From an uncultured Chloroflexota bacterium (GTDB lineage Bacteria > Chloroflexota > UBA11872): a stretch of 64,000 nucleotides of DNA. Every line of letters starts with the position of its first letter. Within the stretch, counting starts at the first letter, position 1. Under the pieces are notes generated by a model that saw only the letters and a program-made list of their open reading frames with translations, was not told where the DNA came from and made no database searches. Shown here piece after piece: positions 26,777 through 51,727 of this stretch. The translations under genes were made by a program, and so were the position numbers. Location of the stretch: the NCBI GenBank assembly GCA_958296175.1, contig OY282448.1, positions 2,150,612 through 2,214,611 of the forward strand, in the 5' to 3' direction.

Positions 26777-28270
26777 TTACAGCAGCGAGCTGGCGACGGC
26801 CGCCTGCGCCCAGGCCAGCAGCCCGCCGCCCACGATGCCGAAGGCCACCGTTGCGCCCGCCGTCACGGCCACCACGGCCGAATGCGCGTCGGCCACCGCG
26901 CCCGACGCCGCGGGCGCGTCCGCCGCCGCAGACGCCGCGGCCGGCGCGTCTTCGTCCTCCATGAACATCAGCACCACCACCCGCAGGTAGTAGAACGCCG
27001 ACACCACCGAGGTCACCACCAGCGTGACGGCCAGCCAGCCCAGGCCGGCGTCCACCGCGGATTGCAGAATGTAGAGCTTGCCCAGGAAACCGGACAGCGG
27101 CGGCACGCCCGTCAGCGAGAGCATGAAGACTGCCATCGCCGCCGCCGGCAGCATGGAGCGCCGCGCCAGACCGCGGAAGGCGCTCAGGTCGTTGCTGTCC
27201 GTCTGGGCTTCCACCACGTAGGCCACCGCGAACGCGCCGAAGGTCATCAGCGCATAGACGAAACCGTAGAACAACACCGACGGCACGCCCACGAAGTCGG
27301 CGCCCGCGTCCGTCTGGCTGACGGCGGCCACGCCCACCAGCATGTAGCCCGTGTGCGCGATGCTGGAATAGCCCAGCATGCGCTTCACGTCCGACTGCGC
27401 AATGGCTGCCAGGTTGCCCAAGATCATGGTGGCGGCGGCGATGACCGCCAGCGCCACGGTGATGTTGGCGGCCAGCGGCTCGAAGGCCAGCGTCACCACC
27501 CGCGCCAGCAGCGCCATGGCGGCCACTTTGGGGCCAACCGAGACGAATGCCGCGGCTGGCGTGGGCGCGCCCTGATAGGCGTCGGGCGTCCAGGCGTGGA
27601 ACGGCACGGCCGCCACCTTGAACCCCAGCGCGACCAGAATCAACCCCAGCGCGAACAGGCTCCAGGGTTCGTCGCCGCGGCTGGCGATGCCGTCCGCCGT
27701 CTCGGCCAGGCTGGTCGTGCCCGTCAGCCCGTAGCTCCAGGCGATGCCGTACACCAGCACCGCCGAGGCGAACGCGCCCAACGCGAAGTACTTCATGGCC
27801 GCTTCCAGCGAGGCGCGCCGGAAGCGGGTCAATCCCACCAGCACGTACACCGGAATGGCCATGGTCTCGATGGCGATGAAGGCCGTGGCCCAGTCCGCCG
27901 CCCCGACCAGCAGCATCATGCCCAGCAGCGAGAACTGCAGCAGCGCCGCAAAGTCGATGAGCGGCGCCGAGGGAAACCGCTGCGCGCCGAAGACGATGGC
28001 CAGCGAGGCCAGCAGGAGGAACAGCGTGCGGAAGAAGGTGGAATAGCCGTCCACCACCAGCTGCCCGGCGAAGAGCTCCACGGCGGCGCCGTCGGCCGGC
28101 GTGCGCATGAATAGCATCAGCGCCGCGGAACCGTTGCCGGCCAGCGCAATGCTCACGCTCATCCAGCGCCGGTCGCCGCGCGTGATTGCCGCCCACAGCA
28201 GCAGTGTCAGCGCCGTGCCCAGCACGATCAGCTCGGGAACGACGTAGCCCAGGTCGCCAGGTTCGATCAT
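26777..28270 (-). CDS. nuoN: NADH-quinone oxidoreductase subunit N
   Basis: ~14-TM antiporter-like subunit, last gene of the cluster. Confidence 0.9.
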   Translation of the reverse strand: MIEPGDLGYVVPELIVLGTALTLLLWAAITRGDRRWMSVSIALAGNGSAALMLFMRTPADGAAVELFAGQLVVDGYSTFFRTLFLLLASLAIVFGAQRFPSAPLIDFAALLQFSLLGMMLLVGAADWATAFIAIETMAIPVYVLVGLTRFRRASLEAAMKYFALGAFASAVLVYGIAWSYGLTGTTSLAETADGIASRGDEPWSLFALGLILVALGFKVAAVPFHAWTPDAYQGAPTPAAAFVSVGPKVAAMALLARVVTLAFEPLAANITVALAVIAAATMILGNLAAIAQSDVKRMLGYSSIAHTGYMLVGVAAVSQTDAGADFVGVPSVLFYGFVYALMTFGAFAVAYVVEAQTDSNDLSAFRGLARRSMLPAAAMAVFMLSLTGVPPLSGFLGKLYILQSAVDAGLGWLAVTLVVTSVVSAFYYLRVVVLMFMEDEDAPAAASAAADAPAASGAVADAHSAVVAVTAGATVAFGIVGGGLLAWAQAAVASSLL

Positions 28271-29748
28271 GGTTGCCCCGCCAGGCCGGCCGTGGCCGTG
28301 CCGAGAAGCCGCACGAACGTGTCAGGGAAAATACCCACCCACACGACTAGCACGCCCAGGCCCGCGAACGTTGCGATTTCCAGGCGGTTCGCGTCTGGAA
28401 TTGCCGCCAGGGACTGGTTGCGCAGGCGGCCCAGCACCACGCGTTGATACATCCACAGCATGTAGGCCGCCGCCAGGATCACGCCCAGCGCGGCCAGCAC
28501 GCCCACGGCCGTGTCGTAGCCGAACGCGCCGACCAGTACCAGGAACTCGCCCACGAACCCGCTCAGCAACGGAAGCCCCAGCGAGGCCAACATGAAGAAG
28601 CCGAAGATCGCCGCATACAGCGGCATCCGCGGCGCCAGGCCGCCCAGATCGTCGATGCGGCGCGTGTGGGCGCGTTCGTACACCACGCCAACCGCAAAGA
28701 ACAGCGCCGGGCTGATGACCCCGTGGCTGAGCATCTGGATGATCGCGCCGTCCATGCCGGTCTGACTGGCGGTGAAAATACCCAGCGTGACGAACCCCAT
28801 GTGGCTGACGCTGGAGTAGGCCACCAGCTTCTTGAGGTCCGGCTGCACCAGGGCCACCAGCGCGCCGTAAATGATGGCCGCCAGCGAGAGCGCCACCAGC
28901 AGGCCGCGCGTCTCGTCCACCGCCGCCGGCGTCATCGGCAGCAGGAAGCGCAGAAAACCGTAAGCGCCCATCTTGAGCAGCACGCCCGCCAGCACCATGC
29001 TGCCGGCCGTGGGCGCCTCCACGTGCGCGTCGGGCAGCCAGGTGTGGAACGGGAACATGGGCACCTTGATGGCGAAGGCCAGGAAGAAGGCCGCGAAGAC
29101 CCAGCGCTGCAGCACCAGCGGCGCGCCCGCCATTTCTGCGGGAATCGCTTCGATGTCGAACGTGCCCGTGGTCAACCGGATGGCCAGGATTGCCACCAGC
29201 ATCAACACGCTGCCGGCAAAGGTGTAGAGGAAGAACTTCACCGTGGCGTAGATGCGGCGCTCGTGCCCCCAGACTCCGATCATCAGGTACATCGGAATCA
29301 ACGCCATTTCCCAGAAGACGTAGAACAGGATGAAGTCCAGCGTGACGAACACGCCCAGCATGGCCGTCTGCAAAACGACCAGCGCCGCGAAGAACTCGCG
29401 CTCGCGCTTGTGGATGGTGAGCCAGGCCGCGCCCACCACCAGCGGTCCCAGAACGCCGGTCAGCAGGACCATCAGGATGGATACGCCGTCCACGCCTAGC
29501 TTGTAGGAAATGCCCAGGGCGGGGATCCACTCCGCCGCTTCCACGAACTGATAGCCGCTGGCGTTGTGGTCGAACCTGACCGTGACCAGGATGGCGATGG
29601 CGGCCTGCACCAGGCTGGCGGCCAGCGCTCCCAGCGCGATGGCGCCGCGGCTGCGCGCCAGCACGATGACCGGCAGCCCGACCAGCAGCGGCAGCCAGAG
29701 CGCCAGGGACAGGTAAGGAAAGTCGAGGGCGGTTTCGCCGGTTGTCAT
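28267..29748 (-). CDS. nuoM: NADH-quinone oxidoreductase subunit M
   Basis: WLPDAHVEAPTAGSMVLAGVLLKMGAYGFLRF signature. Confidence 0.9.
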   Translation of the reverse strand: MTTGETALDFPYLSLALWLPLLVGLPVIVLARSRGAIALGALAASLVQAAIAILVTVRFDHNASGYQFVEAAEWIPALGISYKLGVDGVSILMVLLTGVLGPLVVGAAWLTIHKREREFFAALVVLQTAMLGVFVTLDFILFYVFWEMALIPMYLMIGVWGHERRIYATVKFFLYTFAGSVLMLVAILAIRLTTGTFDIEAIPAEMAGAPLVLQRWVFAAFFLAFAIKVPMFPFHTWLPDAHVEAPTAGSMVLAGVLLKMGAYGFLRFLLPMTPAAVDETRGLLVALSLAAIIYGALVALVQPDLKKLVAYSSVSHMGFVTLGIFTASQTGMDGAIIQMLSHGVISPALFFAVGVVYERAHTRRIDDLGGLAPRMPLYAAIFGFFMLASLGLPLLSGFVGEFLVLVGAFGYDTAVGVLAALGVILAAAYMLWMYQRVVLGRLRNQSLAAIPDANRLEIATFAGLGVLVVWVGIFPDTFVRLLGTATAGLAGQP

Positions 29749-29752
29749 GCCG

Positions 29753-31672
29753 TCACCGGAAGAGCACCAGGCCGCCCACGGTGAGCACCAGGCCGACCAC
29801 CATCAGCAGGGCGTAGTTTTGCGCTTGTCCGGTTTGAATCCGTCCGGCCTGGCCGCCGGCGAAGCGCGACAGTTTCCCAACGCCGTTGACGATGCCGTCC
29901 ACCACGCCCGCGTCGAACCCCCACGAGAGCATAGCTGCGGCCTTGGTCAGCGCCACCATGAACCCGTCGCCCAGGTGGTCCAGGTACCACTTCTGTCGGA
30001 ACAAGGTTTCGGCGCCTGGGGCCAGCGCGCGGGCGCGCTGCGGGATTGGCAGCCCGCGGCCGTAAGCGCCCAGGGCCAGCAGCAGACCCGTCAGCGCGGC
30101 CACCGTCGACACCACGGCCAGGATCAGCGTGGGCGCCGCGCCGGCGCCTTCGAGGTGCAGCACGCCGGCGGCGTGTTCCAGATAGCCGTGGATGACGCCG
30201 TGTTCGGGCGGAATGCCCAGCACGGCCCCGCTCAGCGCCGCACCCGCCGCCAGCACGATCAGCGGCACGGTCATAACCCAGGGCGATTCGTGCGCGTGCT
30301 CGTGCAGCGCCGCGTCGCGCGGCGCGCCGTGGAAGGTCTTCACGATCATGCGGAAGGTGTAGAACGCGGTCAGCACCGAGACGGTCAGCCCGGTGGCGTA
30401 GAACAGCCAGAAGACGCCCGCGCCGTGATCGGCGGTCAGGGCGCCGCCGGGGTCGGCGGCCGCTTTCAGGAACACGTGCGCCAACACTTCATCCTTGCTC
30501 CAGAACCCGGCCAGGGGAAAGACCGCGGCCAGGGCCAGGCCGCCGAGTATGAAGGTGGCGTAGGTTACTGGCAGCTTGCGCCGCAGGCCGCCCATGCGCC
30601 GCATGTCCTGTTCGTCGTTCAGCGCGTGGATCACGCTGCCGGAGCCGAGGAACAGCAGCGCCTTGAAGAAGGCGTGCGTGGCCAGGTGAAAGATCGCCAC
30701 CGTGTAGGCGCCTGCGCCGGCCGCCAGAAACATGAGGCCCAGCTGGCTCACCGTGGAGTAGGCCAGCACGCGCTTGATGTCCGTTTGCACCAGGGCGATG
30801 GTGGCGGCCAGCACGGCCGTGAACGCGCCGACGGCCGCCACCAGCAGCAGCGCTTCCGGCGCCTGCGTGTAGAGCGGATTCATGCGCACGACCAGATACA
30901 CGCCGGCCGTCACCATGGTGGCGGCGTGAATCAGCGCGCTGACTGGCGTGGGGCCTTCCATGGCGTCGGGCAGCCACACGTGCAGCGGAAACTGCGCCGA
31001 CTTGCCCATGGCCCCGACGAACAGCAGGCAGGCGATGGCCGTCACCATGCCCGCGTCCGCCGATCCCAGCCCGGCAAAAATCTCGCGGTAGCGCAGCGTG
31101 CCGAACTCCAGGAAGGCCAGGATGATGCCGATGGCGAACCCGAAGTCCCCGATGCGGTTCACCAGGAACGCCTTCGTGGCCGCCGCGTTGGCGCTGTCGC
31201 GGTCGTACCAGTAGCCGATCAGCAGATACGAACACAGCCCCACCATCTCCCAGAAGACGAAGAGCTGCAGCAGGTTGTCGGAGATGACCAGCATGATCAT
31301 GCTGAACACGAACAGCGGAATCCAGGTGAAGAAGCGCGGCTTGTTCGCGTCGTGGTCCATGTAGCCCACCGCGTACAGCGACACCAGCGCGCTGACGCCG
31401 GTGACGACCAGCAGCATCACGATCGTCAAGGCGTCGGTCAGGAACGCGATGTCGATGGTGAAGCCGCCGCTAGCGACCCAGCGGTACAGCAGCGACTCGT
31501 CCTGGTCCGCGCCGGCGCTTGCGATCCAAAGCGCCACGGTTGCCGCAAACGACCCCACGACGGCCGCCGTGGACACCCAGCCGGTCCAGCGCGGATTGCG
31601 CCTGCCAAACAGGCCGTTGACCGCGAACGCCGCCAGCGGCAGCAGCGGGATGATCCAGGGGGCGTTCAGCAT
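29753..31672 (-). CDS. nuoL: NADH-quinone oxidoreductase subunit L
   Basis: 639 aa antiporter-like subunit with long C-terminal extension. Confidence 0.9.
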   Translation of the reverse strand: MLNAPWIIPLLPLAAFAVNGLFGRRNPRWTGWVSTAAVVGSFAATVALWIASAGADQDESLLYRWVASGGFTIDIAFLTDALTIVMLLVVTGVSALVSLYAVGYMDHDANKPRFFTWIPLFVFSMIMLVISDNLLQLFVFWEMVGLCSYLLIGYWYDRDSANAAATKAFLVNRIGDFGFAIGIILAFLEFGTLRYREIFAGLGSADAGMVTAIACLLFVGAMGKSAQFPLHVWLPDAMEGPTPVSALIHAATMVTAGVYLVVRMNPLYTQAPEALLLVAAVGAFTAVLAATIALVQTDIKRVLAYSTVSQLGLMFLAAGAGAYTVAIFHLATHAFFKALLFLGSGSVIHALNDEQDMRRMGGLRRKLPVTYATFILGGLALAAVFPLAGFWSKDEVLAHVFLKAAADPGGALTADHGAGVFWLFYATGLTVSVLTAFYTFRMIVKTFHGAPRDAALHEHAHESPWVMTVPLIVLAAGAALSGAVLGIPPEHGVIHGYLEHAAGVLHLEGAGAAPTLILAVVSTVAALTGLLLALGAYGRGLPIPQRARALAPGAETLFRQKWYLDHLGDGFMVALTKAAAMLSWGFDAGVVDGIVNGVGKLSRFAGGQAGRIQTGQAQNYALLMVVGLVLTVGGLVLFR

Positions 31673-31702
31673 CGGGGCGCACTCATCGCGTGAAGCAGGG
31701 CG

Positions 31703-32002
31703 TCACCCTCGCAGACTGTCGAGTTGGTCCACGTTGACCACCGGATACACGCGGCTCAGCGCCACCAGGATGGCAAGCCCCACGGCCACTTCCGCCGCCG
31801 CCACCGTGAGCGAGAAGATCACCAGCACGAACCCGGCCTGGTCGTCCAGATAGGCCGAGAAGGCGGCCAGCGTGACGTTGGCGCCTTGCAGCATCAGCTC
31901 GATCGACATCAGCATCACGATGGCGTTGCGGCGAATCAGCACACCCATGGCACCGATGGAAAAGATCAACGCGCCCACCACCAGAAAGCCGTTCAGCGTC
32001 AT
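31703..32002 (-). CDS. nuoK: NADH-quinone oxidoreductase subunit K
   Basis: 99 aa, three TM helices, SIELMLQGANV motif. Confidence 0.9.
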   Translation of the reverse strand: MTLNGFLVVGALIFSIGAMGVLIRRNAIVMLMSIELMLQGANVTLAAFSAYLDDQAGFVLVIFSLTVAAAEVAVGLAILVALSRVYPVVNVDQLDSLRG

Positions 32003-32643
32003 CGCGGCGATTCCTGCGCGGCCTGCGCGGCCTGTTCGGCCTGCGCCGCCGAATCAGCGCCGTTCGCCGCGGACGTCTGCGCCCGCTGGCGCGGGAAGTC
32101 GGCGCGCTCGTGCTCCTCGATGCGGCGCGCCAGCACGATTGCCCCGACGGTTGCGGCCGTCAGCATCACGCTCGCGCCCAGGAAGGGCAGCGTGTAGTCG
32201 TTGAACAACGCCACGGCCAGCGCCTCGGCGCTGCCGCCCAGTTCGGACACGGTCGCCGGCGGGAACGCGCCCTTGATCGACTCCCGCACCTCCGGCGTGC
32301 CGGCCCCGATGACGACCGCCTCCACCGCCAGCAGCAGCGCCAGCGGAATGCCCAGCCAGAGCTGCCGATGGGTCACGCGCTCTTCCGGCAGGTGCCGCAG
32401 ATCCAGCATCATCAGCGTGAACAGGAACAGCACCACAATCGCGCCCGCGTAGATGGCGATTTGCGCCACGGCCAGGAATCCGGACCCCAGGATCGCGAAG
32501 AACCCGGCCACGTGGAAGATCACCACGACCAGAGAAATGGCCGAGTGCACCGGGTTGCGCACCGAGACCATCAACAGCGACGCCGCCACCGACGCGGCGG
32601 CCAGGTACCAGAACGCGAGATGGGTTTCGATGTTGTCAGGCAT
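31999..32643 (-). CDS. nuoJ: NADH-quinone oxidoreductase subunit J
   Basis: Five-TM subunit overlapping nuoK by 4 nt. Confidence 0.85.
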   Translation of the reverse strand: MPDNIETHLAFWYLAAASVAASLLMVSVRNPVHSAISLVVVIFHVAGFFAILGSGFLAVAQIAIYAGAIVVLFLFTLMMLDLRHLPEERVTHRQLWLGIPLALLLAVEAVVIGAGTPEVRESIKGAFPPATVSELGGSAEALAVALFNDYTLPFLGASVMLTAATVGAIVLARRIEEHERADFPRQRAQTSAANGADSAAQAEQAAQAAQESPR

Positions 32644-32702
32644 CGAGACTCACCGGCGCGCGGCGCGCGCGGCTGCCGCGGCGGGGCGAGTGGAGACCGA
32701 AC

Positions 32703-33194
32703 TCAGCCACGTTCGAACCAGTTGGCAATGGCGGCGCCGGGGCCGATGTTGTGCTGTTCCGCTTCCCGATACGCCTGGTCGTTCTCGTAGATCTCGATCA
32801 TCTTCTGGCCGTCGATCAGCAGGCCGCGGCGGTCCTCGGTGACGAGGTGGAAGTCGTGCGTGCGCTGCAGGGCGTCCACCGGGCAGGCCTCGATGCAGAA
32901 GTAGCAGAACACGCAGCGCCCCACGTCGAACAGGTAGCGGTCGACGAAGCGGGTGCCGTCCGCGTTTTCGCTGGTGTCCACCCGAATCACGTCGTTGGGG
33001 CAGGCGGTCTCGCACAGGCCGCAGCCCACGCAGGTCATGCCGCCCGTCACCTCGTCGCGCCGCATGCCCACCTGGCCGCGGAAGCGGTAGCCGATGTCGC
33101 GCACGTGCTCCGGATACATCACGGTGGACGGCTTGCGCCGGCCGACCATGAGCACGGTCTTGAGTCCGGTCAGAACGCCTGATCCAAGGGGCAT
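32703..33194 (-). CDS. nuoI: NADH-quinone oxidoreductase subunit I (2x[4Fe-4S] ferredoxin)
   Basis: Two CxxCxxCxxxCP motifs (CVGCGLCETACP, CVFCYFCIEACP). Confidence 0.9.
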   Translation of the reverse strand: MPLGSGVLTGLKTVLMVGRRKPSTVMYPEHVRDIGYRFRGQVGMRRDEVTGGMTCVGCGLCETACPNDVIRVDTSENADGTRFVDRYLFDVGRCVFCYFCIEACPVDALQRTHDFHLVTEDRRGLLIDGQKMIEIYENDQAYREAEQHNIGPGAAIANWFERG

Positions 33195-33197
33195 GAG

Positions 33198-34199
33198 CTA
33201 GCTCCAGGCCATCCGCAGCGCCGCCGCCGCGAGGAGATTGAGCGCGCCAATCGGAATGAGGATCTTCCAACAGAAGTTCATCAGCTGGTCGTAGCGGAAC
33301 CGCGGCAGCGCGGCGCGGAACAGGAAGAAGGCAAAGACGAAGAGGCCGGTCTTCAGCACAAACCAGCCCACGCCGGAGATCGCCTCCAGGCCCGGAATCG
33401 TCCATCCGTGCCAGCCGCCCAGGAACAACGTGGCGGCAATGGCCGACATCAGCAGGATGTTGGCGTATTCGGCCATGAAGAAGAAGGCCCAGCGCATGCC
33501 CGAATACTCCACGTGGAAGCCCGCCACCAGCTCCGTCTCGGCCTCCGGCAGGTCCAGCGGCGCGCGGTTCGTTTCGCCCACGGCCGCGATGAGGAACAGC
33601 AGGAAGCCGATGAACTGCGGGACGATGAACCACAGACCCGCCTGCGCGTTCACGATATCCACCAGGCTGAGCGAGCCGCTGTAGACGATGACCGCCAGCA
33701 CGCCCAGGCCCAGCACCAGCTCGTAGCTGATGATTTGCGCGCTGGAGCGCAGCGCGCCCAGGTGGGCGTATTTGCTGTTCGAGGCCCAACCGGACATCAC
33801 CACGCCGTAGACCCCCAGCGACCCCATGGCCAGGAAGAACAGGACGCCCACGTTGAGGTCGGCGACCCACAGCCCGAAGGTGCGGCCAACGTCCACCGGC
33901 GGCCCGAAGGGCACCACCGCCCAGGCCGCCAGCGCCGGCGTCACCATCATCACCGGCGCAAACCAGAAGATGCCCTTGTCGGCCATGGCCGGGATCGTGT
34001 CTTCTTTGATGCCCAGTTTCAGGCCGTCGGCCGCGGTTTGCAGCGAGCCTCGCCAGCCCACGCGGTTGGGGCCGATGCGGGATTGCAAGCGGCCCAGCGT
34101 CCAGCGTTCGAATAGCACCAGCGCCAGCGGCGCCACCGGCAGCAACAGGAACACCGCCAACACCTTGGTGACGACGATGAACCAGTCCCAGAAATCCAC
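33198..34199 (-). CDS. nuoH: NADH-quinone oxidoreductase subunit H
   Basis: Eight-TM NuoH/ND1 pattern. Confidence 0.9.
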   Translation of the reverse strand: MDFWDWFIVVTKVLAVFLLLPVAPLALVLFERWTLGRLQSRIGPNRVGWRGSLQTAADGLKLGIKEDTIPAMADKGIFWFAPVMMVTPALAAWAVVPFGPPVDVGRTFGLWVADLNVGVLFFLAMGSLGVYGVVMSGWASNSKYAHLGALRSSAQIISYELVLGLGVLAVIVYSGSLSLVDIVNAQAGLWFIVPQFIGFLLFLIAAVGETNRAPLDLPEAETELVAGFHVEYSGMRWAFFFMAEYANILLMSAIAATLFLGGWHGWTIPGLEAISGVGWFVLKTGLFVFAFFLFRAALPRFRYDQLMNFCWKILIPIGALNLLAAAALRMAWS

Positions 34200-34201
34200 G
34201 C

Positions 34202-36631
34202 TCAGACCTTGTGCACGCGCACGGCGGCGCCGTCGGGCGCCCGGGGGTCGAGCTGCCGGGGGGCGGCCTCCAGGAAGCGGTCGGGCAGGCTGACCACGCC
34301 GGGCGGCACGCGGTCGGCCACCAGGGCTTTCAGATTGACTTCGCCGCCGTCCGCCGAAAGGCGGATGCGGTCGCCGTGGGCGATGGACAGCCGCTGCGCG
34401 TCGCCCGCGTTCAGTTCGGCCACCGCCTCCGGCAGCATGAGCGTCAGGCTGTCTGCGCGGCGTCCGCTGACGCCGGCGGTGTAAAGATGCTGCTCGGTGG
34501 CCAGAACGAATCCGTCCGCGGGCGCCGGCGCCGCGCCGTTGACCGCGGCGGACTCCCGCGAGCCGGGAAGCGAGGGCCGCTGCATCAGCCCGGCCAGTTC
34601 GGTGCTGATGGGCTCGTGGCTGCGCCAGCCAAAATCGGCCCCCATGGCTGCCGAGACGCGGGCAACGATCTCCCAGTCGGGGCGCGCCTTGCCCACGGGC
34701 GGAATTGCCGGAGCGAGCCGTCCCAGGCGTCCCTCGAAGTTGGTGAAGTGCCCGCCCTTTTCGGCGAAGGTCGCGCCAGGCAGCACCACGTCGGCGGCTT
34801 CGGTGGTCGCATTCATGAAGATGTCCTGCGCCACCACCAGGCGGGCGCGTTCGAGGGCCGCCTGCGCGCCCTGCGGGTTGGCCGACCCGCCCACCACGTC
34901 TTCGCCCATCACGTAGAGCGCCTGCATCGGGCCGTCGATGAAGTCGTCGAAGGCCAGGCCGGGTTCGGCGGGTACCGGAGCGCCCCAGGCGTCGGACGCC
35001 TGGCGGCGGGCCTCGTCGTCGCTCAGCGGGCGCGCGCCCGGCAGAAGGTCGGGCGCCATGCCCAGCAGGAACGTGCCGGCGGCGTTGGCGCGTTCGGGCA
35101 GGGGAAAGAGCTTCACGCCGTCATGCGCCAGCGCCAGATTGGCGGCGCCCTGCGCAATCGCTTCGGCCTTGCCCAGCGTCCACACGCCCGTATCCCAGAC
35201 CACTGCAACGGTGCCGGCCGCCTGTACGCGGCTGCGCATCGCTGTCAGCGTGTCGGCGTCGATCCCCGTCAGCGCGTGCATGTTGGGGATGTCCGCGCCG
35301 GCCAGGGCGCTCAACAGGACGGCCTCTGCCCCCGGTCGCACGCGCGCCGCGACGGTTGCGAAGTCGTCCAGCCCGCTGGCGAGCCGGGTTGCCACCAGCA
35401 GCGTGCGCCCGTCGTCGCGGGCGGCCTGCTTGACGTGCGCGCCCACCACGTTGTGCGTCTGGCCAATGTCCGCGCCCACCACCAGGATCACGTCGGATTC
35501 CAGCAGTTCCGACTGCGAGCGGGGGCCGGCGGCGCTGCCCAGCACCGCGCGCAGCGTGCGCGCGGCGGCGTGCAGGCCGCTGCTCTGGCTGTAGACGTTG
35601 TTGGTGCCCAGCACGGCGCGGGCGAACCGCTGCAGGGTGTAGTTGTCTTCGTTGGTGGTGTTCGGCGAGCCAACCACGCCCACGGCCTGCGGACCGTGCG
35701 CGTCCAGCACCTCGCGCAGACCCGCGCTGATCACGTTCAGGGCTTCGCTCCAGCTGGCGGGCTGCAGCGCGCCGTTGCGGCGGACCAGCGGCTCCGTAAT
35801 CCGCTCGCCGCTGTTGACGAACGAGTGGCCGAAGAATCCCTTGGCGCACAGGATGCCGCGGTCGGGCTCTTCCAGGCCGTTGGAGCGCGTGCGCACCACG
35901 CTGCCGTGGCGGGATTCCACCAGCAGCGAACACCCAACCGCGCAATGGGGGCAGGTGGAGGCGGTCTTCTCGGTTTGCCAGCTGCGCGCCGCGTGCTTGA
36001 ACGGGCGGCTGAGCAGCGCGCCCACCGGGCAGGTTTCGATGCACATCCCGCAGCGTTCGCAGTCCATGAACTCGTGCTGCGCCGGCGCGATGAACGTGCC
36101 CACGGCGCGTTCCACGAAGTCGAGCGCGCGCACGCCGATTTGTTCGTCGCACATGCGCACGCAGCGCCCGCAGAGGATGCAGCGGTTGTGGTTGATGAGG
36201 ATGACCTCGTTGAGGATTTCCTCCGGGTGCGCCTTGGGCACGGTCTCGTAGGGGCTCTGGAAAATCTCCTGATCGAACACCTCGTCTTGCAGCTCGCAGG
36301 TGCCGGCCTGGTCGCAGTAGGGGCAGTCCAGCGGGTGGTGCTGCAATTGCAGCTCGATCACGTGCTTGCGAATGTCCTTGATGCTCTGGCTGTCGGTCAC
36401 CACCGTCATGCCGTCGCCGGCGGGCGTGGTGCACGAGGCCGTGGGCCGCGGCGGGCCGGGCTGGACTTCCACCACGCACATGCGGCAGGCGCCGTAGGGC
36501 TTCAGCCGCGGGTCGGTGCAGAGCGTGGGAATCTCGACGCCGATGGACTCGCAGGCTTGCAGCACGGTCGCCCCGCGCGGCACCTGCACCTCCTGGCCGT
36601 CTATCGTGAGCGTGACGGTCTCGGAACTCAT
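34202..36631 (-). CDS. nuoG: NADH-quinone oxidoreductase subunit G (75 kDa Fe-S subunit)
   Basis: MSSETVTLTIDGQEVQVPRGATVLQACE...CRMCVVEV 2Fe-2S N-terminus, 4Fe-4S cysteine motifs and molybdopterin-like domain. The 34202..38044 ORF is an artefactual fusion; the true start ATG overlaps the nuoD stop (ATGA). Confidence 0.85.
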   Translation of the reverse strand: MSSETVTLTIDGQEVQVPRGATVLQACESIGVEIPTLCTDPRLKPYGACRMCVVEVQPGPPRPTASCTTPAGDGMTVVTDSQSIKDIRKHVIELQLQHHPLDCPYCDQAGTCELQDEVFDQEIFQSPYETVPKAHPEEILNEVILINHNRCILCGRCVRMCDEQIGVRALDFVERAVGTFIAPAQHEFMDCERCGMCIETCPVGALLSRPFKHAARSWQTEKTASTCPHCAVGCSLLVESRHGSVVRTRSNGLEEPDRGILCAKGFFGHSFVNSGERITEPLVRRNGALQPASWSEALNVISAGLREVLDAHGPQAVGVVGSPNTTNEDNYTLQRFARAVLGTNNVYSQSSGLHAAARTLRAVLGSAAGPRSQSELLESDVILVVGADIGQTHNVVGAHVKQAARDDGRTLLVATRLASGLDDFATVAARVRPGAEAVLLSALAGADIPNMHALTGIDADTLTAMRSRVQAAGTVAVVWDTGVWTLGKAEAIAQGAANLALAHDGVKLFPLPERANAAGTFLLGMAPDLLPGARPLSDDEARRQASDAWGAPVPAEPGLAFDDFIDGPMQALYVMGEDVVGGSANPQGAQAALERARLVVAQDIFMNATTEAADVVLPGATFAEKGGHFTNFEGRLGRLAPAIPPVGKARPDWEIVARVSAAMGADFGWRSHEPISTELAGLMQRPSLPGSRESAAVNGAAPAPADGFVLATEQHLYTAGVSGRRADSLTLMLPEAVAELNAGDAQRLSIAHGDRIRLSADGGEVNLKALVADRVPPGVVSLPDRFLEAAPRQLDPRAPDGAAVRVHKV

Positions 36632-37851
36632 CGATCGACCTCGCCCAACACTATGTCCACGCTGCCGATGATCGCCACCACGTCGGCAATCAGCGCGCCC
36701 ACGCTGATCTTTTCGATGATGGCCAGATTTACGAACGACGGTGAGCGCACGTGGCAGCGGTACGGCTCGCCGCTGCCGTCGCTGACGAAGTAGAAGCCCA
36801 GCTCGCCCTTCGGGTTCTCGATACTGAAGTAAGCCTCGCCGGGTTCCGGCTGCACGCCGTGCATGACCAGCTTGAAGTGATTGATCATCGCTTCCATGTC
36901 CACCGGCACGCGGCTGATGTCTGGCGGCGTCACCGTGGGCAGCGCCGCGTTCGAGGGCGAGCCGGACGGCAGGCCGCGCAGCGCCTCCACACACTGGCCG
37001 ATGATGCGGCAGGACTGGTACATCTCGTTCAGGCGCACCAGGTAGCGCGCGTACACGTCGCCTTCCTCGAACACCGGCAGCTCGAAGTCCACCAGGTCGT
37101 AGGCCGCGTAGGGCCGCGCCTTGCGCAGGTCCCAGGCCACGCCCGACCCGCGCAGCACTGGGCCGGTCAGCCCGTAGCTCAGGGCCTCCTCGCGCGTGAT
37201 GTGCCCCACGTCGCGCGTGCGCTCCAGAAAGACTTCGTTCTCGGTCAGCAGCGTGTCGATCTCGTGCAGCGCGTAGCCCTCCAGAAAGGCTTCCACGTTG
37301 TCCAGCCACTGGTCGCCCACGTCGTGCGGCCCGGTGCCGCCCACGCGCATGAACGAGGTGGTGAGCCGCGCACCGCAGGCTTCTTCGAACAGATACAGGA
37401 TCTTTTCGCGTTCCCGCAGCGACCACAGGAAGGCCGACATGGCGCCGATGTCCAGCCCGTGGGTGCCGATCCAGATGTGATGCGAGGCCAGCCGCGAGAG
37501 CTCCGCCACGGCCGTGCGCAGGTAGCGCGCGCGCAGCGGAATCTCGTCCGTGATGCCCATCAGCTTTTCGATGGCCATCAGGTAGCCCATGTTGTTGGAC
37601 GGCCCGGCGGTGTAGTCCATGCGGTCGGTCAGGGTGATGCCGCCGCGGTAGTCGTGCGCCTCGATCAGCTTTTCCACCCCGCGGTGCAGGTAGCCCATGT
37701 CGGCCTTGCAGCCGAGCACTTCTTCGCCGTCCAGCTCCAGCAGCAGCCGCAGCACGCCGTGCGTGCTGGGGTGCTGCGGCCCCAGGTTGAGAATCATGGA
37801 GTCCGGGCTGGTGCGTTCCAGGTCCATGCGCGGCCCCGCGTTCACCGCCAT
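36628..37851 (-). CDS. nuoD: NADH-quinone oxidoreductase subunit D (49 kDa)
   Basis: MILNLGPQHPSTHGVLRL...GYLHRGVEKL signature; start overlaps the nuoC stop (TGATG). Confidence 0.9.
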   Translation of the reverse strand: MAVNAGPRMDLERTSPDSMILNLGPQHPSTHGVLRLLLELDGEEVLGCKADMGYLHRGVEKLIEAHDYRGGITLTDRMDYTAGPSNNMGYLMAIEKLMGITDEIPLRARYLRTAVAELSRLASHHIWIGTHGLDIGAMSAFLWSLREREKILYLFEEACGARLTTSFMRVGGTGPHDVGDQWLDNVEAFLEGYALHEIDTLLTENEVFLERTRDVGHITREEALSYGLTGPVLRGSGVAWDLRKARPYAAYDLVDFELPVFEEGDVYARYLVRLNEMYQSCRIIGQCVEALRGLPSGSPSNAALPTVTPPDISRVPVDMEAMINHFKLVMHGVQPEPGEAYFSIENPKGELGFYFVSDGSGEPYRCHVRSPSFVNLAIIEKISVGALIADVVAIIGSVDIVLGEVDR

Positions 37852-38426
37852 CAGGCCTTCGCCTCGTCGTCCACGCCCGCCCAGAAGTCGTCGGGGTCCA
37901 GCGCGCCCACCAGGTCGTTGCGGTGCGCGTCTTCGGGGAACGTAGGCCCTTCCACCGGATACTCCTTGCGCAGCGGATGGCCCTCGTAGCCTTCGGGCAG
38001 CAGAATCCGCCGCAGGTCGGGGTGGCCGGTGAAGCCGATGCCAAAGAGGTCGAACACTTCCCGTTCCAGGTAGACCGCGGAGGCGTAGGTGGACGCCGCT
38101 GAGGCTACCGCCCCGCCGTCCGCCAGGCGCACGCTCACGCGCGCGTAGAGATTATTGGTCAGCGAGCGGAACTGCCATACCACCTCGAACTCGCGGCCGG
38201 AGTCGAGCGGCCAGTGCACCGCCGTGACGTCGATCAGCTGTTCCAGCCGCAGGTGCGGGTCGCCGCGCAGCGCCGCGAAGAGCGCCGGCAGCGCGCCAGC
38301 CTCAACCTCGGCCACCGGGTCGCCGTGATCCACGCGGCCGCCCAGGTACGCCGCGCCAGCGTGGTGGGACACGTGTTCCAGCACGGCGTCCGGCGCCAGG
38401 GTGGCTTCAGCCGCGGGGATCAGCAT
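37851..38426 (-). CDS. nuoC: NADH-quinone oxidoreductase subunit C (30 kDa)
   Basis: Motif EREVFDLFGIGFTGHPDLRRILLPEGYEGHPLRKEYP. Start taken at the Met immediately after the nuoA stop (ORF-track start 38462 would overlap nuoA). Confidence 0.8.
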   Translation of the reverse strand: MLIPAAEATLAPDAVLEHVSHHAGAAYLGGRVDHGDPVAEVEAGALPALFAALRGDPHLRLEQLIDVTAVHWPLDSGREFEVVWQFRSLTNNLYARVSVRLADGGAVASAASTYASAVYLEREVFDLFGIGFTGHPDLRRILLPEGYEGHPLRKEYPVEGPTFPEDAHRNDLVGALDPDDFWAGVDDEAKA

Positions 38427-38428
38427 CG

Positions 38429-38791
38429 TCAGCGGTTCCAGTCCAGCGCGCCCTTGCGCCACTCGTAGACGAACGCCGTGGCCAGGATGGCCAGGAACAC
38501 CGCGCCCACGCCAAACAGCGACACGCGGTCGTCAATCATGTTGAAGTACAGCGCCCACGGATAGAAGAAGAGCAGCTCCACGTCGAAGATCAGAAAAGTC
38601 ACCGCCACCAGATAGAAGCGGATGCTGTGGCGGCCGCGCGCGTCGCCGATGGGTTCCATGCCCGACTCGTAGGCCGTGACCTTGGCCCGGTACTTGCGGC
38701 GCGGCTTGAGCGCCATGGTGCCAACCAGGCTCCCCACGGCAAAGAGAAAGGCCAGGGCGAACAACAGGACAACGGCCACCCAACTCGGCAT
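38429..38791 (-). CDS. nuoA: NADH-quinone oxidoreductase subunit A
   Basis: YESGMEPIGDARGRHSIRFYLVAVTFLIFDVELLFFYPW is typical of NuoA/ND3. Confidence 0.85.
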   Translation of the reverse strand: MPSWVAVVLLFALAFLFAVGSLVGTMALKPRRKYRAKVTAYESGMEPIGDARGRHSIRFYLVAVTFLIFDVELLFFYPWALYFNMIDDRVSLFGVGAVFLAILATAFVYEWRKGALDWNR

Positions 38792-38830: not shown

Positions 38831-38848
38831 TTGTGAACGATTTCACAA
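38831..38848. promoter_or_regulatory. Rex operator (ROP) TTGTGAACGATTTCACAA upstream of nuoA, plus a -10-like TATGAT (minus strand, ~38859-38864) just upstream of it
   Basis: Perfect match to the Rex consensus TTGTGAAnnnnTTCACAA, ~35 nt upstream of the nuoA ATG, with the rex gene immediately upstream on the same strand. Confidence 0.75.
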
Positions 38849-38928: not shown

Positions 38929-39564
38929 TCAGCGGCTGAGACAGTAGGCCAGGTACTCCAGTTCCACCGCCAGGTCCACGTGGGCCAGCTCCACGTGGTC
39001 CGGAACCTGGAGCTTGGCGGGCGCGAAGTTCAGCACGGCCCGCACGCCGGCCGCCACGGCGCGGTCCACCACCGGCTGCGCGGCTGCGGCTGGCACGGTT
39101 ACGACCACCATGTCGATGCGCTGCTCGCGCACCGCGCGCGCCAGGCGCTCGACGGGCAGCACGGTCTGGCCGCCCACGGCTGCGCCCACCATGCGCGGGT
39201 CGTTGTCGAAGGCCGCCGCCACCGTGAAGCCCTGCGCGCCAAACCCCTGGTAAGCCAGCAGCGCGCGCCCCAGGTTCCCCACGCCGATCAACGCCACGCG
39301 CCAGCCGCGGTCGATGCCCAGGATGGCGGCCAGCCGCCGCCGCAGCGGTGCGACCGCGTAGCCCACGCCGCGTTTGCCGAACGTGCCGAAATAGGTCAAA
39401 TCGCGCCTGACCTGCGCGGCCGTGAAGCCGGTGAGCTGCGCCAGCGCCCGGGACGACGCGTTGGCGCGCCCCTCCGCGTGCAGCGCGCCCAGCACGCGGT
39501 AGTAGGTGGACAACCGCCGGATCGTGGTCGGCGGCGCGGAGCGTGCGGCTCGACTCGGGACCAT
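38929..39564 (-). CDS. rex: Redox-sensing transcriptional repressor Rex
   Basis: Winged-helix N-terminus (TIRRLSTYYRVL) and Rossmann NADH-binding motif ALIGVGNLGRALL; ~210 aa. Confidence 0.85.
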   Translation of the reverse strand: MVPSRAARSAPPTTIRRLSTYYRVLGALHAEGRANASSRALAQLTGFTAAQVRRDLTYFGTFGKRGVGYAVAPLRRRLAAILGIDRGWRVALIGVGNLGRALLAYQGFGAQGFTVAAAFDNDPRMVGAAVGGQTVLPVERLARAVREQRIDMVVVTVPAAAAQPVVDRAVAAGVRAVLNFAPAKLQVPDHVELAHVDLAVELEYLAYCLSR

Positions 39565-39823
39565 CGCGCGGACTTCGCGCTTCTGCGGGCGTGCTGCGGC
39601 CGCTCACAGGATGCACGCTTTTCGCGCCCGCGGCGCGTGCGCGGCCGCCGGGCAGCGTTCGCGGGCGGCGCACGTCGGCACCCATGCCTCGCCGCGGCGT
39701 GACGGCGCGCCGCCGCGGACGGCGGGGTGTCCGCGGCGGCGCCGAACCGGCTAGCATCGTCCACCCGCGGCCGCGGCATTGGCGCGCCGCGCGCCCGACC
39801 CACCTGGAGGCGCCCCGACCACG

Positions 39824-41818
39824 ATGAGCGAAACCCGCGTCGGCGTCGACGTCGGCGGCACGTTCACCGACTTCGTGGTGACGGACGGCGAATCGCTGCA
39901 CGCATTCAAGGTGTCCAGCACGCCGGGCGACCCGGGCGAGGCGGTGCTGGAGGGGCTGCGGCGCGCCGGCGCGGGCGCGGGCGCAACCGTCGTTCACGGC
40001 TCCACGGTTGCCACCAACGCCGTGCTGGAACGGCGCGGCGCGCGCACCGCGCTGGTCACCACCGAAGGGTTTCGCGACGTGCTGGAGATCGGCCGCCAGC
40101 ACCGCCCGGAGCTCTACGCCATCGAGCCGCGCAAGCCGCCGCCGCTGATCGACCGCGGCCTGCGGCTGGAAGTCGCGGAGCGCGTGGGCGCCGACGGGGC
40201 GGTGCGCCGGCCGCTGGACCCTGCCTCGCTGGACCGGCTGGTCGAGCGCGTGCGGGCGCTGCAACCGGAAGCTGCCGCCGTCTGCCTGCTCTTCAGCTTC
40301 TTGCGGCCGTCGCACGAACGCTCGGTGCGCGCCGCGCTGCGCCGCGCCGGCGTCCGCTGGGTGTCGATTTCTTCGCAGGTGCTGCCCGAGCACCGCGAAT
40401 ACGAACGCACCAGCACCACGGTCGTGGACGCCTACGTCGCGCCGCTGATGGGGCGCTACGTCCGCCGTCTGGAGCGCGCCCTGGCGGGCAGGCTCTGGAT
40501 CGTGCAGTCCAGCGGCGGCGTGCTGCGCTCCGCGGAAGCCGCCGCCGCCCCGGTGCAAACCGTGCTCAGCGGCCCCGCGGCGGGCGTGGCCGGGGCGCGC
40601 GCGGTGGCCGCCGCCTCCGGGTTCGACCATATCGTCACGCTGGACATGGGCGGCACTTCCACCGACGTTGCCATTTGTCCGGGCGAGCCGCTGCGCCGCA
40701 CCGACGCAACGATTGGCGGGCTGCCCGTGGCGATTCCGATGACCGACATTCACACCGTGGGCGCGGGCGGCGGCTCCGTGGCGGCGCGCGACGACGTGGG
40801 CGGCCTGCGCGTCGGCCCCCGCAGCGCCGGCGCCGTGCCCGGGCCGGCCGCCTACGGCCGCGGCGGCCGCCAGCCCACCGTCACCGACGCCAACGTGGTG
40901 CTGGGGCGCTTGCCCGCGGGCGCGGCGCTGGCCGACGACGTGGCGCTGGACGCCGCGGCCGCGGCCGCCGCCGTCGACCGGCTGCTGCCGGCGGCCGCGC
41001 GCTCTCCCCAGGCGCGCATCCACGCCGCCGCCAGCGTCGTCGCCGTGGCAGACGCGCACATGGAGCGCGCTTTGCGCGTCATCACGCTGGAGCGCGGCTA
41101 CGACCCGCGCGACTTCGTGCTGGTGGCCTTTGGCGGCGCGGGGCCGCTGCACGGCTGCGCGCTTGCCGAACGCCTGGAGATCGACCGCGTGCTGGTTCCG
41201 CGCTATCCGGGCGTGCTCTCGGCGCTGGGCGCGCTCAGCGGCGAGCACGTGCGCGAATATGCGGCCACGCTGCTGCGGCCCGCCGCCGCGGCCAGCGCGC
41301 CAGCGGTGCGCGCGGCTTTCGCGCGGCTGGAACGCACGGCGCGGCGCGACTTCCAGGGCGCGGGCCGCCCGCAGCTGCGCCGCCGCCTCGATCTGCGCTA
41401 CGCGGGCCAGTCGTTCGAACTCACAGTGCCGCTGCGCGGCCTAGGCATTGCCCGCGCCGTGCGCGCCTTTCACGCCCGCCATCAGGAGCGCTACGCGCAC
41501 AGCCGCCCCGAGGCGCCGGTGGAAATTGTGGTCGCGCGTCTGGTGGCCGCGGTTGCGCGGCCGCCGCTGCCGCCCACGCGGCCGCCGGCTGCCGGCGCCC
41601 CGCGCGCACAGCGCGCGCCCGTCGTCGTCGGCGAGACCGCGCGCGGCGCCCGCGTGTTTCAGCGCGCCGAGCTGCCCGGCGGCTTCCGTGCGCACGGGCC
41701 GCTGCTGGTGCTGCAGGACGACGCCACGACCTGGGTGCCGCCGGGGTGGTTTGCTACAGTCGATCCGCAGGCCGCGCTCATCCTCAGCCGTTCCCGAACG
41801 CGCGGCGGCCCTGAGTAA
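39824..41818 (+). CDS. Hydantoinase/oxoprolinase family protein (HyuA-like, N-methylhydantoinase A family)
   Basis: RVGVDVGGTFTDFVV N-terminus and second ASKHA motif VTLDMGGTSTDVAI; ~664 aa. No HyuB partner adjacent. Start set at MSETR within the 39779 ORF. Confidence 0.75.
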   Translation: MSETRVGVDVGGTFTDFVVTDGESLHAFKVSSTPGDPGEAVLEGLRRAGAGAGATVVHGSTVATNAVLERRGARTALVTTEGFRDVLEIGRQHRPELYAIEPRKPPPLIDRGLRLEVAERVGADGAVRRPLDPASLDRLVERVRALQPEAAAVCLLFSFLRPSHERSVRAALRRAGVRWVSISSQVLPEHREYERTSTTVVDAYVAPLMGRYVRRLERALAGRLWIVQSSGGVLRSAEAAAAPVQTVLSGPAAGVAGARAVAAASGFDHIVTLDMGGTSTDVAICPGEPLRRTDATIGGLPVAIPMTDIHTVGAGGGSVAARDDVGGLRVGPRSAGAVPGPAAYGRGGRQPTVTDANVVLGRLPAGAALADDVALDAAAAAAAVDRLLPAAARSPQARIHAAASVVAVADAHMERALRVITLERGYDPRDFVLVAFGGAGPLHGCALAERLEIDRVLVPRYPGVLSALGALSGEHVREYAATLLRPAAAASAPAVRAAFARLERTARRDFQGAGRPQLRRRLDLRYAGQSFELTVPLRGLGIARAVRAFHARHQERYAHSRPEAPVEIVVARLVAAVARPPLPPTRPPAAGAPRAQRAPVVVGETARGARVFQRAELPGGFRAHGPLLVLQDDATTWVPPGWFATVDPQAALILSRSRTRGGPE

Positions 41819-43953: not shown

Positions 43954-44799
43954 CTAGGCGCCGATCGCGCGGCGCAGCGCCCGCACCTCGCGGAACAGGC
44001 CGGCGGGGTTCATGCCCACCGTGTCGATCATGTGCACCGTGCCGGGGTTGCGGCCAACCGCGCGCATGATCGTGCCCACGTCCAGCCCGCGCTGTAGCTC
44101 CACGTGCAGCGGCACGCTTGGCTCGCGGCCCGGCGCCGTGTTGTGCCAGCGAATCTCGGCCAGCCGGTCGGCGAACCGCGCCATGTAGTTCAGCCGCGAC
44201 TCGAAGGCCAGATGGTTGCCGTCCACCGAGTGAAACGCGCGCCCGGTGTGCAGCGCCAGGCGCACGCGGGAGGTCTCCTCCAGCATGGACAGCACGCTGT
44301 CCACGGCGTGCAGCGCCGCGCCGCTGTCGGCGTTTTCGACCGCGATCGGCAAGCCGGGGAACAGGTTGTGGATCGTGCGAAAGCTCTCTCGCAGCGCGTC
44401 CATGTGCCGCGCGTCCGGCCCTGTGCGCCGCCCCGGATGCACCACGTACATCTCCATGGCGTGGCGCTGCTCGAAGAACTCGACGATCTGCACCAGCTGG
44501 CGCAAGGCGATGCTGCGGTCGGTCGCGTTCGGGTCGGTCAACGCGGGCCAGCGCCGCTCGGGCGCGTCGCGGAAGACGTTCAGGTGGAAGCGCATCGGCG
44601 CGCGGTCCAGGATGTGGATGAAGTCGGCATCGAAGAACGTGCGCAGCCCCAGCTCGTACATCACCGTGTCCAGGCTGAACTCCACGACCTGAAACTCCAG
44701 CCGCACGGCCACGTCCACGATGGCGCGCAGTTGTGCCAGCAGCCGCCGGCGGTCGTGCGCCGCCAGCCGCGGATTGAACCCCAAACGCAGCGGCGGCAT
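43954..44799 (-). CDS. Sugar phosphate isomerase/epimerase (xylose isomerase-like TIM barrel)
   Basis: AP-endonuclease-2/xylose-isomerase-like TIM-barrel pattern; internal Met start (MPPLRLGFNP). Confidence 0.65.
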   Translation of the reverse strand: MPPLRLGFNPRLAAHDRRRLLAQLRAIVDVAVRLEFQVVEFSLDTVMYELGLRTFFDADFIHILDRAPMRFHLNVFRDAPERRWPALTDPNATDRSIALRQLVQIVEFFEQRHAMEMYVVHPGRRTGPDARHMDALRESFRTIHNLFPGLPIAVENADSGAALHAVDSVLSMLEETSRVRLALHTGRAFHSVDGNHLAFESRLNYMARFADRLAEIRWHNTAPGREPSVPLHVELQRGLDVGTIMRAVGRNPGTVHMIDTVGMNPAGLFREVRALRRAIGA

Positions 44800-44946
44800 G
44801 GCCGTTACCCCGCCCGTCCAGACGGCGGCGCGGCCCAACCAGCCGCCAGCGGCGCTGCCCAATCTGGCGGCGGCGCGGCCACCGAACGCGGCTTTACATA
44901 ACTGGCTTGCAGGATCACGGTGCAGACTCCCGCCGCCGGCCCCGCC

Positions 44947-51441: not shown

Positions 51442-51586
51442 GTCCCGATATTCGCCCCGCGGCCGCGCCTCGCGCGCGCCCCCAGGCTACCTGTCTTCCT
51501 GGAGCCGGCGGGGGCGCGCCGCCCGCGGCGGAGGCCGTTCGAGGGGCGGCGGCGCCGCCGAGTGGGCGGGATTGCGCTGCGGCGGG

Positions 51587-51615: not shown

Positions 51616-51727
51616 CCGCGCGAGCTTGGGGTCGATATGTGCGGTAGTCCGCTCTGACATCGGCGTCACCCAGGCCGAGAGACGTGAGGACGTTGGAGCG
51701 TCACGCAGCACATCGGAGAGTCACGGC

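Follow-up and report, generated by a model that had tools for sequence, protein, structure and literature searches.

The locus lies on the minus strand of a 64 kb stretch of DNA (hereafter the window, which is the whole stretch that was analysed). Between positions 26777 and 38791, eleven nuo genes follow one another in the order nuoA-C-D-G-H-I-J-K-L-M-N, preceded by a redox-sensing repressor gene and an operator-like palindrome. From the divergent upstream neighbour to the last gene of the operon, the features are:

39779-41818, plus strand: hydantoinase/oxoprolinase A-like gene (PF05378 and PF01968), divergent from rex
38929-39564, minus strand: rex, NADH/NAD+ redox-sensing repressor (NCBIfam NF003992 equivalog, 255 bits against a cutoff of 226)
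38831-38848, no strand assigned: palindrome TTGTGAACGATTTCACAA, resembling a Rex operator, between rex and nuoA and 40 nt before the nuoA ATG
38429-38791, minus strand: nuoA, 120 aa (PF00507, E 2e-30)
37851-38426, minus strand: nuoC, 191 aa from the ATG at 38426 (PF00329, E 8e-35)
36628-37851, minus strand: nuoD, 407 aa, quinone-site subunit (TIGR01962 NuoD, 490 bits against a cutoff of 459)
34202-36631, minus strand: nuoG, 809 aa (NuoG family models and Pfam domains)
33198-34199, minus strand: nuoH, 333 aa (PF00146, E 1.5e-117)
32703-33194, minus strand: nuoI, 163 aa (TIGR01971, E 3e-32), with two CxxCxxCxxxCP motifs
31999-32643, minus strand: nuoJ, 214 aa (PF00499, E 6e-34)
31703-32002, minus strand: nuoK, 99 aa (PF00420, E 3e-26; NF004321 above cutoff)
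29753-31672, minus strand: nuoL, 639 aa (PF00662 and PF00361)
28267-29748, minus strand: nuoM, 493 aa (PF00361, E 2e-82)
26777-28270, minus strand: nuoN, 497 aa, last gene of the operon (TIGR01770 NuoN, 388 bits against a cutoff of 333)

Every one of the eleven genes matches the Pfam or NCBIfam family expected for it (E 1e-26 to 1e-147), and all lie on the minus strand, in the order and at the places that a sequence-only reading of this DNA had given. The membrane-arm set, i.e. NuoA, H, J, K, L, M and N, is complete and intact (E 1e-26 to 1e-117). The Q-module subunits NuoC, NuoD and NuoI are present together with their quinone-site and 4Fe-4S motifs: NuoD contains both GPQHPSTHG and GYLHRGVEK and finds its top match among solved structures in Aquifex NuoCD2 (7Q5Y, E 8e-120), and the 4Fe-4S motifs of NuoI read CVGCGLCETACP and CVFCYFCIEACP. 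The chosen start of nuoC is supported by the length of its homologues, which measure 186-192 aa. Junctions within the operon range from -4 to +59 nt. The overlaps described in the sequence-only reading, TGATG between nuoC and nuoD (37853-37849) and ATGA between nuoD and nuoG (36631-36628, 4 nt), were both found. Its statement that the nuoA stop is immediately followed by the nuoC start needs a small correction, as the dinucleotide CG separates the TGA (38431-38429) from the ATG at 38426. The junctions bear out its further claim that the operon leaves no space for nuoB, nuoE or nuoF. The genes 3' of nuoN are unrelated to the operon (here bioY and accB), as they are in the relatives, and scans for promoters, terminators, tRNAs and Rfam families yielded nothing useful.

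No coding sequence or remnant of NuoB, NuoE or NuoF was detected in any frame of the 64 kb window by tblastn, profile or Pfam searches. The tblastn queries comprised four NuoB, two NuoE and two NuoF sequences from E. coli, Thermus and the Thermobaculum-type operon; hmmsearch with a 120-sequence NuoB profile and phmmer with NuoE and NuoF were run on six-frame open reading frames of at least 25 aa, where the positive control (the Thermobaculum-type locus) alone scored; and Pfam found none of the three subunits in any other predicted gene of the window. A frameshifted nuoB remnant, the possibility raised in the sequence-only reading, is excluded by the six-frame search together with the reading of the junctions. 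Fusion of NuoB to an adjoining subunit was rejected as well, the subunits being of normal length and of single-family domain content. When the Thermobaculum-type NuoB was used as query, the best 120 of more than 8000 matches were Thermobaculum-like and Acidobacteriota NuoB, none of them on contigs of the lineage. The nearest NuoCD-fusion match was examined in case the lineage has two nuo clusters, and dismissed, as it belongs to an unrelated organism.

The arrangement is not peculiar to one genome. The order hydantoinase (hyuA)/rex-nuoA-C-D-G-H-I-J-K-L-M-N recurs in 34 of 34 related loci, drawn from at least 30 Chloroflexota MAGs of GTDB UBA2235/UBA11872 and including complete HiFi MAGs, sponge MAGs and UBA6622, and nuoB, nuoE and nuoF are absent from all of these loci too. 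NuoC identity falls from 82% to 44%, and the gene order is conserved across a class-level, sponge-associated lineage of Chloroflexota. Reading frames are intact in all eleven genes, and dN/dS against the closest relative ranges from 0.06 to 0.17 over all eleven, which indicates purifying selection. Misassembly or a recent deletion is effectively ruled out by the recurrence of the same order in all 34 loci, and the wider idea of an artefact or decaying locus, which would also cover a deletion in a single MAG or pseudogenisation, has next to no probability: the same order and junctions are found in independently assembled genomes, circular long-read contigs among them, the frames are open, dN/dS stays well under 1 and there is no remnant of a gene. 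Since the order without the three genes is identical in every relative examined, the most probable explanation is that nuoB, nuoE and nuoF simply have their place elsewhere in the genome.

With nuoB missing from the operon, the question arises of what could take the place of cluster N2. To our knowledge, a NuoB homologue is found in every known relative of complex I. Both NuoA and NuoC are devoid of cysteine and no protein of the cluster has an extra domain, so that nothing encoded here can replace N2, and NuoB would therefore have to come in trans. A complex I-like enzyme that truly lacks NuoB, reducing quinone without N2 or serving a non-redox role, is very improbable. The one argument for it is that every relative lacks nuoB both in the operon and in the DNA around it, to which may be added that the nearest NuoC homologues outside the lineage also lie in clusters without nuoB (L030, A-C-D-H-J-K-L-M, and L032, C-D-H-I-J-K-L). 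We know of no characterised member of the complex I/group 4 hydrogenase superfamily without a NuoB-type subunit, the cluster offers no alternative cysteine-rich site, and the redox and quinone-site motifs of NuoD, NuoI and NuoG, which are under purifying selection, would make no sense without N2.

The rex gene lies directly upstream of nuoA and in the same direction, and occupies the same place in all related loci. The predicted operator in the spacer is a perfect TTGTGAA-N4-TTCACAA; it is the sole match in the window at up to two mismatches, where 0.02 are expected by chance. Nearly all relatives have a Rex-type site with at most two mismatches at the corresponding place, and one also precedes the canonical nuoA of the Thermobaculum-type operon. 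The operon thus has the features of a Rex regulon, i.e. a Rex repressor and a predicted operator in the promoter region. Such control would make NADH the likely substrate, and hence suggests that nuoE and nuoF, too, lie elsewhere. The hydantoinase-like gene stands beside rex in all related loci as well; a role in the complex is not evident.

The retention of nuoG, as claimed in the sequence-only reading, was confirmed by its domains (Fer2_4, NADH-G_4Fe-4S_3, Fer4_Nqo3, Molybdop_Fe4S4, Molybdopterin and Molydop_binding) and by a full set of Fe-S ligands, the Fe-S motifs being conserved across the lineage. Its best models are both NuoG models (NF005895, 443 bits; TIGR01973, 427 bits), both below their curated cutoffs, and the formate dehydrogenase alpha model reaches 331 bits. 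In the active-site segment '…RVCHSPT…' of FdsA (6TG9), the cysteine, which we take to be the Mo ligand, aligns with a leucine of NuoG. A cysteine at this position was found in no NuoG of the lineage, nor in a canonical NuoG. The alignment indicates that the molybdopterin-like domain is non-catalytic. An identity of the gene product as a catalytic formate dehydrogenase alpha subunit was rejected, because leucine replaces the Mo-ligand cysteine and the NuoG models outscore that of formate dehydrogenase.

That NuoG keeps all of its Fe-S ligands while NuoE and NuoF are missing from the operon throughout the lineage invites another explanation, namely that nuoB is encoded elsewhere, that no NuoE or NuoF is dedicated to complex I, and that NuoG docks a ferredoxin, flavodoxin or other flavoprotein donor. 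An unrelated metagenomic cluster (L039) with the order nuoA-B-CD, GltD/NADH_4Fe-4S flavoprotein, nuoG-H… has a GltD-like flavoprotein before nuoG, which suggests that NuoG can pair with partners other than NuoE and NuoF, and Campylobacter-type complex I, in which NuoG is kept and NuoE and NuoF are absent, provides a further precedent. However, these precedents hold substitute genes between nuoD and nuoG, where the present genes overlap by 4 nt; the 25 kb to either side contain no candidate donor module, Pfam searches of the predicted genes having found neither a hydrogenase nor a formate dehydrogenase nor a flavodoxin module in the window; and the operon appears to be governed by Rex, a sensor of NADH/NAD+, as are canonical NADH-oxidising nuo operons. 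We therefore regard another input module as unlikely, and the variant complex proposed as an alternative in the sequence-only reading received no positive support. A fuller form of the idea is quite unlikely: here NuoE, NuoF and NuoB would lie outside the operon lineage-wide, NuoG would dock a separately encoded donor in genomes without dedicated NuoE and NuoF, and NuoB would act in trans and might serve another Nuo-like membrane module as well. Were there indeed no dedicated NuoE and NuoF but another donor, complex I would here be modular, and its input exchangeable.

We propose instead, with a probability of roughly 78%, that the locus is the functional, Rex-regulated main operon of an NADH:quinone oxidoreductase whose nuoB, nuoE and nuoF are located elsewhere on the chromosome. 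This agrees with the suggestion, made for nuoB in the sequence-only reading and extended here to nuoE and nuoF, that the missing genes reside at another site; it is now the best-supported reading, and we infer the relocation itself from lineage-wide conservation, purifying selection, the lack of any protein able to substitute for N2, and the predicted Rex control, all of which make it the most probable outcome. The product of the operon would be the proton-pumping respiratory complex I of an uncultured Chloroflexota bacterium of the UBA2235/UBA11872 lineage. The operon would supply the membrane arm in full (NuoA, H, J, K, L, M and N) and, of the peripheral arm, the subunits NuoC, D, I and G, whereas NuoB, which carries N2 and donates electrons to quinone, and NuoE/NuoF, with FMN and the NADH site, would be encoded elsewhere on the chromosome of about 3 Mb and be added to the complex in trans. 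Electron flow would follow the canonical path from NADH to FMN (NuoF), N3, N1b/N4/N5 (NuoG), N6a/b (NuoI) and N2 (NuoB), and quinone would be reduced in a pocket formed by NuoD, NuoH and NuoB. The arrangement is consistent with, and does not establish, descent from a 14-gene operon, since the nearest standard relative found, of the Thermobaculum terrenum type, has the order nuoA-B-C-D-E-F-G-H…. Simple relocation leaves unexplained why precisely the subunits carrying the entry cofactors (FMN, N1a and N3) and the exit cofactor (N2) are missing.

The novelty lies in the gene order only; the enzyme is ordinary, and for Chloroflexi split nuo operons, including ones with a detached nuoB, have already been described (Chadwick et al. 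2018, as summarised in PMC7117926). Our literature searches found no report of the present order, which adds evidence that Chloroflexota can split the nuo operon along unusual lines. If nuoB, nuoE and nuoF are merely elsewhere, we are dealing with a lineage-specific variant of gene order, relevant chiefly to annotation: pipelines that demand an unbroken nuoA-N run, or all 14 genes on a single contig, would score abundant sponge symbionts as complex I-negative. Only if the genomes truly lacked NuoE and NuoF (or NuoB) would the locus bear on module exchange in complex I and on the route of electron entry.

Compared with canonical nuoA-N operons (the Thermobaculum terrenum-type L034, Thermus nqo and E. 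coli nuo), the present operon has the same eleven subunits, relative order and cofactor motifs, but nuoB is gone between nuoA and nuoC, as are nuoE-nuoF between nuoD and nuoG. The 11-subunit 'ancestral' enzymes NuoABCDHIJKLMN, such as the NDH-1 of cyanobacteria and those of Dehalococcoidia and Desulfitobacterium, possess nuoB and lack nuoG. The present cluster likewise comprises eleven genes without nuoE and nuoF, yet it lacks nuoB and contains nuoG, which places it outside this group. In the complex I of Campylobacterota, two non-homologous genes replace nuoE and nuoF between nuoD and nuoG, and nuoB is kept. Campylobacterota and L039-like clusters share with our operon a nuoG without nuoE and nuoF; here, however, nuoE and nuoF are unreplaced, as the ATGA overlap of nuoD and nuoG attests, and nuoB is absent, so that the operon is of neither type. 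Rex-regulated nuo operons of Gram-positive bacteria, e.g. Streptomyces, combine Rex with a TTGTGAA-N4-TTCACAA operator. A Rex protein and a predicted operator of this form upstream of nuoA are found here too, with the difference that throughout the lineage rex itself directly precedes the operon. Within the same phylum, the '2M' complex I of Chloroflexi is described in PMC7117926 as having a second nuoM between nuoL and nuoM, with nuoB, a fused nuoCD and nuoI grouped in an operon of their own. As far as that description goes, nuoB likewise lies away from the membrane-arm genes; in contrast, the operon described here retains nuoC, nuoD and nuoI, unfused, has single nuoL, nuoM and nuoN genes and is thus not of the 2M type, and it is nuoE and nuoF that are detached while nuoG stays.

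Eleven closely packed genes on the minus strand (26777-38791) form the nuo cluster, in the order nuoA-C-D-G-H-I-J-K-L-M-N, and gene calls and family matches bear out the extent assigned to it in the sequence-only reading. Each protein matches the single expected family in Pfam and NCBIfam, i.e. NuoA (PF00507), NuoC (PF00329), NuoD (TIGR01962) and NuoN (TIGR01770), the latter two over the curated cutoffs, as well as NuoG, NuoH, NuoI, NuoJ, NuoK, NuoL and NuoM. NuoC is 191 aa long from the ATG at 38426, in agreement with homologues of 186-192 aa. The overlaps described earlier between nuoC and nuoD (TGATG) and between nuoD and nuoG (ATGA) were read directly in the sequence. The nuoA-nuoC junction is indeed close, but the nuoA stop does not directly abut the nuoC ATG as had been described, since a 2-nt spacer (CG) separates them. 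The C-terminus of NuoJ (31999-32100, minus strand) is a low-complexity tail, ...AAQAEQAAQAAQESPR, and NuoJ is the subunit with the lowest conservation among relatives (56-80% identity).

The remaining genes of the window encode ordinary housekeeping functions, as identified by Pfam scans (priA, def, fmt, rpe, recG, coaD, fabD/G/H/F, accB/C, nusB, tatC, bioY, an ABC transporter, a cysK-like gene, aspS, dnaN, ggt and others), with serS inferred from synteny alone. Scans of the window found no tRNA and no Rfam match. The following genes are referred to by position.

Further genes of the window
12047-12472, plus strand: predicted gene, strong coding GC3 bias, without Pfam match
19102-19974, minus strand: predicted gene, strong coding GC3 bias, without Pfam match
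39779-41818, plus strand: hydantoinase/oxoprolinase A-like gene 1
43954-44862, minus strand: predicted gene, strong coding GC3 bias, without Pfam match
49438-51441, minus strand: hydantoinase/oxoprolinase A-like gene 2
51233-52885, plus strand: dnaN (DNA polymerase III beta clamp)

The real start of dnaN is probably further downstream, because its domains begin only at ~residue 168, and no dnaA lies beside it within the window. Relatives carry a Pfam-less gene in the position equivalent to 43954-44862 (e.g. 5802-6647 in the lineage locus L001), a correspondence of position alone.

Searches of the window for NuoB, NuoE and NuoF were negative. E. coli and Thermus queries gave only chance matches in tblastn (the top one, E 0.04, antisense to an ABC-transporter gene), and those from the Thermobaculum-type operon gave none at E ≤ 0.01. 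When all six-frame stop-to-stop ORFs of at least 25 aa were searched with a NuoB profile HMM built on 120 sequences and with NuoE/NuoF in phmmer, the positive control alone scored. A frameshifted nuoB remnant in the cluster, which the sequence-only reading had named as a sign of a sequencing or pseudogene problem, is absent by the six-frame HMM and tblastn searches. In a protein search with the Thermobaculum-type NuoB, no contig of this lineage (GTDB UBA2235/UBA11872) was represented among the best 120 of >8000 matches. Because NuoA and NuoC have no cysteines and no cluster protein carries an extra domain (sequence and Pfam), none of these proteins would be able to substitute for the N2 cluster of NuoB. 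A separate input module could stand in place of NuoE/NuoF, but this is unsupported and we consider it improbable; the Pfam scan of all other predicted window genes revealed neither a hydrogenase, a formate dehydrogenase or a flavodoxin nor any further candidate for such a module.

The cluster itself is predicted to be functional. All eleven genes show dN/dS of 0.06-0.17 against the closest relative, rough figures as dS is near saturation. NuoD contains the conserved Tyr motif as well as the N-terminal motif of the complex I type and aligns over its full length with solved complex I subunits, NuoI contains both 4Fe-4S motifs, and NuoG (34202-36631, minus strand) keeps the 2Fe-2S and every 4Fe-4S ligand set, N7-type included, lineage-wide. 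The top solved-structure matches of NuoG are alpha subunits of NAD-dependent formate dehydrogenases (6TG9, 9WXB), with mycobacterial NuoG ranking lower. A catalytic formate dehydrogenase is nevertheless ruled out and the protein is predicted to be non-catalytic, because Leu occupies the position of the Mo-binding Cys and NuoG models score higher than the formate dehydrogenase model. The NuoG equivalog models score it under their curated cutoffs, which marks it as a divergent NuoG.

The gene directly upstream of nuoA is rex, whose product scores over its NCBIfam cutoff. The rex-nuoA spacer holds a perfect Rex operator-like palindrome, TTGTGAA-N4-TTCACAA (38831-38848); the window has no second site of this kind, and chance would account for 0.02. 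A near-perfect copy occupies the equivalent position in nearly all relatives, ~40-57 nt upstream of nuoA (at ~7777 in L006-L029 and 9585 in L001); in L004/L005 it is located ahead of rex rather than ahead of nuoA, and in the Thermobaculum terrenum-type locus it precedes, at 6556, a canonical 14-gene nuo operon. Since Rex is a sensor of NADH/NAD+, its gene and the predicted operator favour an NADH-oxidising enzyme. The hydantoinase gene at 39779-41818 is divergent from rex in all relatives examined. In more distant lineage members a Methyltransf_28 gene (PF02636; L004 5656-6780, L035 3048-4121, L036 5047-6069), absent from the window, adjoins the hydantoinase gene upstream of rex-nuo; this family includes NDUFAF7/MidA, an assembly factor of mitochondrial complex I.

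The arrangement without nuoB, nuoE and nuoF is a trait of the lineage, and an artefact is excluded. In the protein search, NuoC was 100% identical to a database protein encoded on a 3,002,743-bp contig and had close homologues in ~67 clusters, several labelled Chloroflexi/Chloroflexota MAG proteins; homologues with 67% and 47% NuoC identity share the order divergent hydantoinase, rex, nuoA-C-D-G-H-I-J-K-L-M-N. When one genome per GTDB species was scanned with NuoG, 24 loci emerged, all from "Chloroflexota bacterium" MAGs of sponge, seawater and long-read metagenome origin, several being complete chromosomes, and the nuo order is identical in all 24 (tblastn). The order also agrees in more lineages with NuoD identity of 59-75%, where nuoN closes the operon and the genes beyond it are unrelated. 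Robbins et al. 2021 (PMC8163846) assign four sponge MAGs among the loci to p__Chloroflexota; c__UBA2235; o__UBA11872; in a later study UBA2235/UBA11872 is handled as a class-level lineage, and UBA11872 MAGs are reported from corals and sponges (PMC10608941).

We infer that nuoB, nuoE and nuoF lie elsewhere in the genome, because NuoB is, to our knowledge, universally required, the redox chain is intact on either side of the gap, and the genes are under purifying selection and apparent Rex control. The reading we prefer, with a probability of about 0.8, is a lineage-wide relocation of the three genes from a complex I operon that is functional and in other respects canonical. The missing nuoB might also be taken at face value, as a genuinely NuoB-less enzyme, which the universal requirement makes very unlikely.

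The nearest standard relative found is the Thermobaculum terrenum-type operon, nuoA-B-C-D-E-F-G-H-I-J-K-L, with NuoD 54% identical; the window's order may plausibly derive from an operon of this type, though the small NuoD margin over other phyla falls short of establishing it. Outside the lineage, three clusters invite comparison.

Clusters beyond the lineage
L030, 5634-12735: nuoA-C-D-H-J-K-L-M, without nuoB, nuoI and nuoE/F/G
L032, 6001-12642: nuoC-D-H-I-J-K-L
L039, 8176-18969: nuoA, nuoB, fused nuoCD, GltD-like flavoprotein, nuoG-H-I-J-K-L

The first two hold the closest NuoC homologues beyond the lineage and likewise lack nuoB, so nuoB detachment may be more widespread than UBA2235/UBA11872. 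The unrelated metagenomic cluster L039, in which nuoB is two short gene calls and a GltD-like flavoprotein of 634 aa with an NADH_4Fe-4S domain precedes nuoG, appears to encode a complex I variant whose input protein, placed ahead of NuoG, is not NuoEF. Split nuo operons are already known in Chloroflexi (PMC7117926, summarising Chadwick et al. 2018); in the '2M' type, according to that summary, nuoB, fused nuoCD and nuoI are detached, a pattern unlike that of the window. The 11-subunit ancestral type has nuoB and lacks nuoG, the Campylobacter type has replacement genes between nuoD and nuoG, and the cluster belongs to neither. Its gene order is new, within a system that is itself known.
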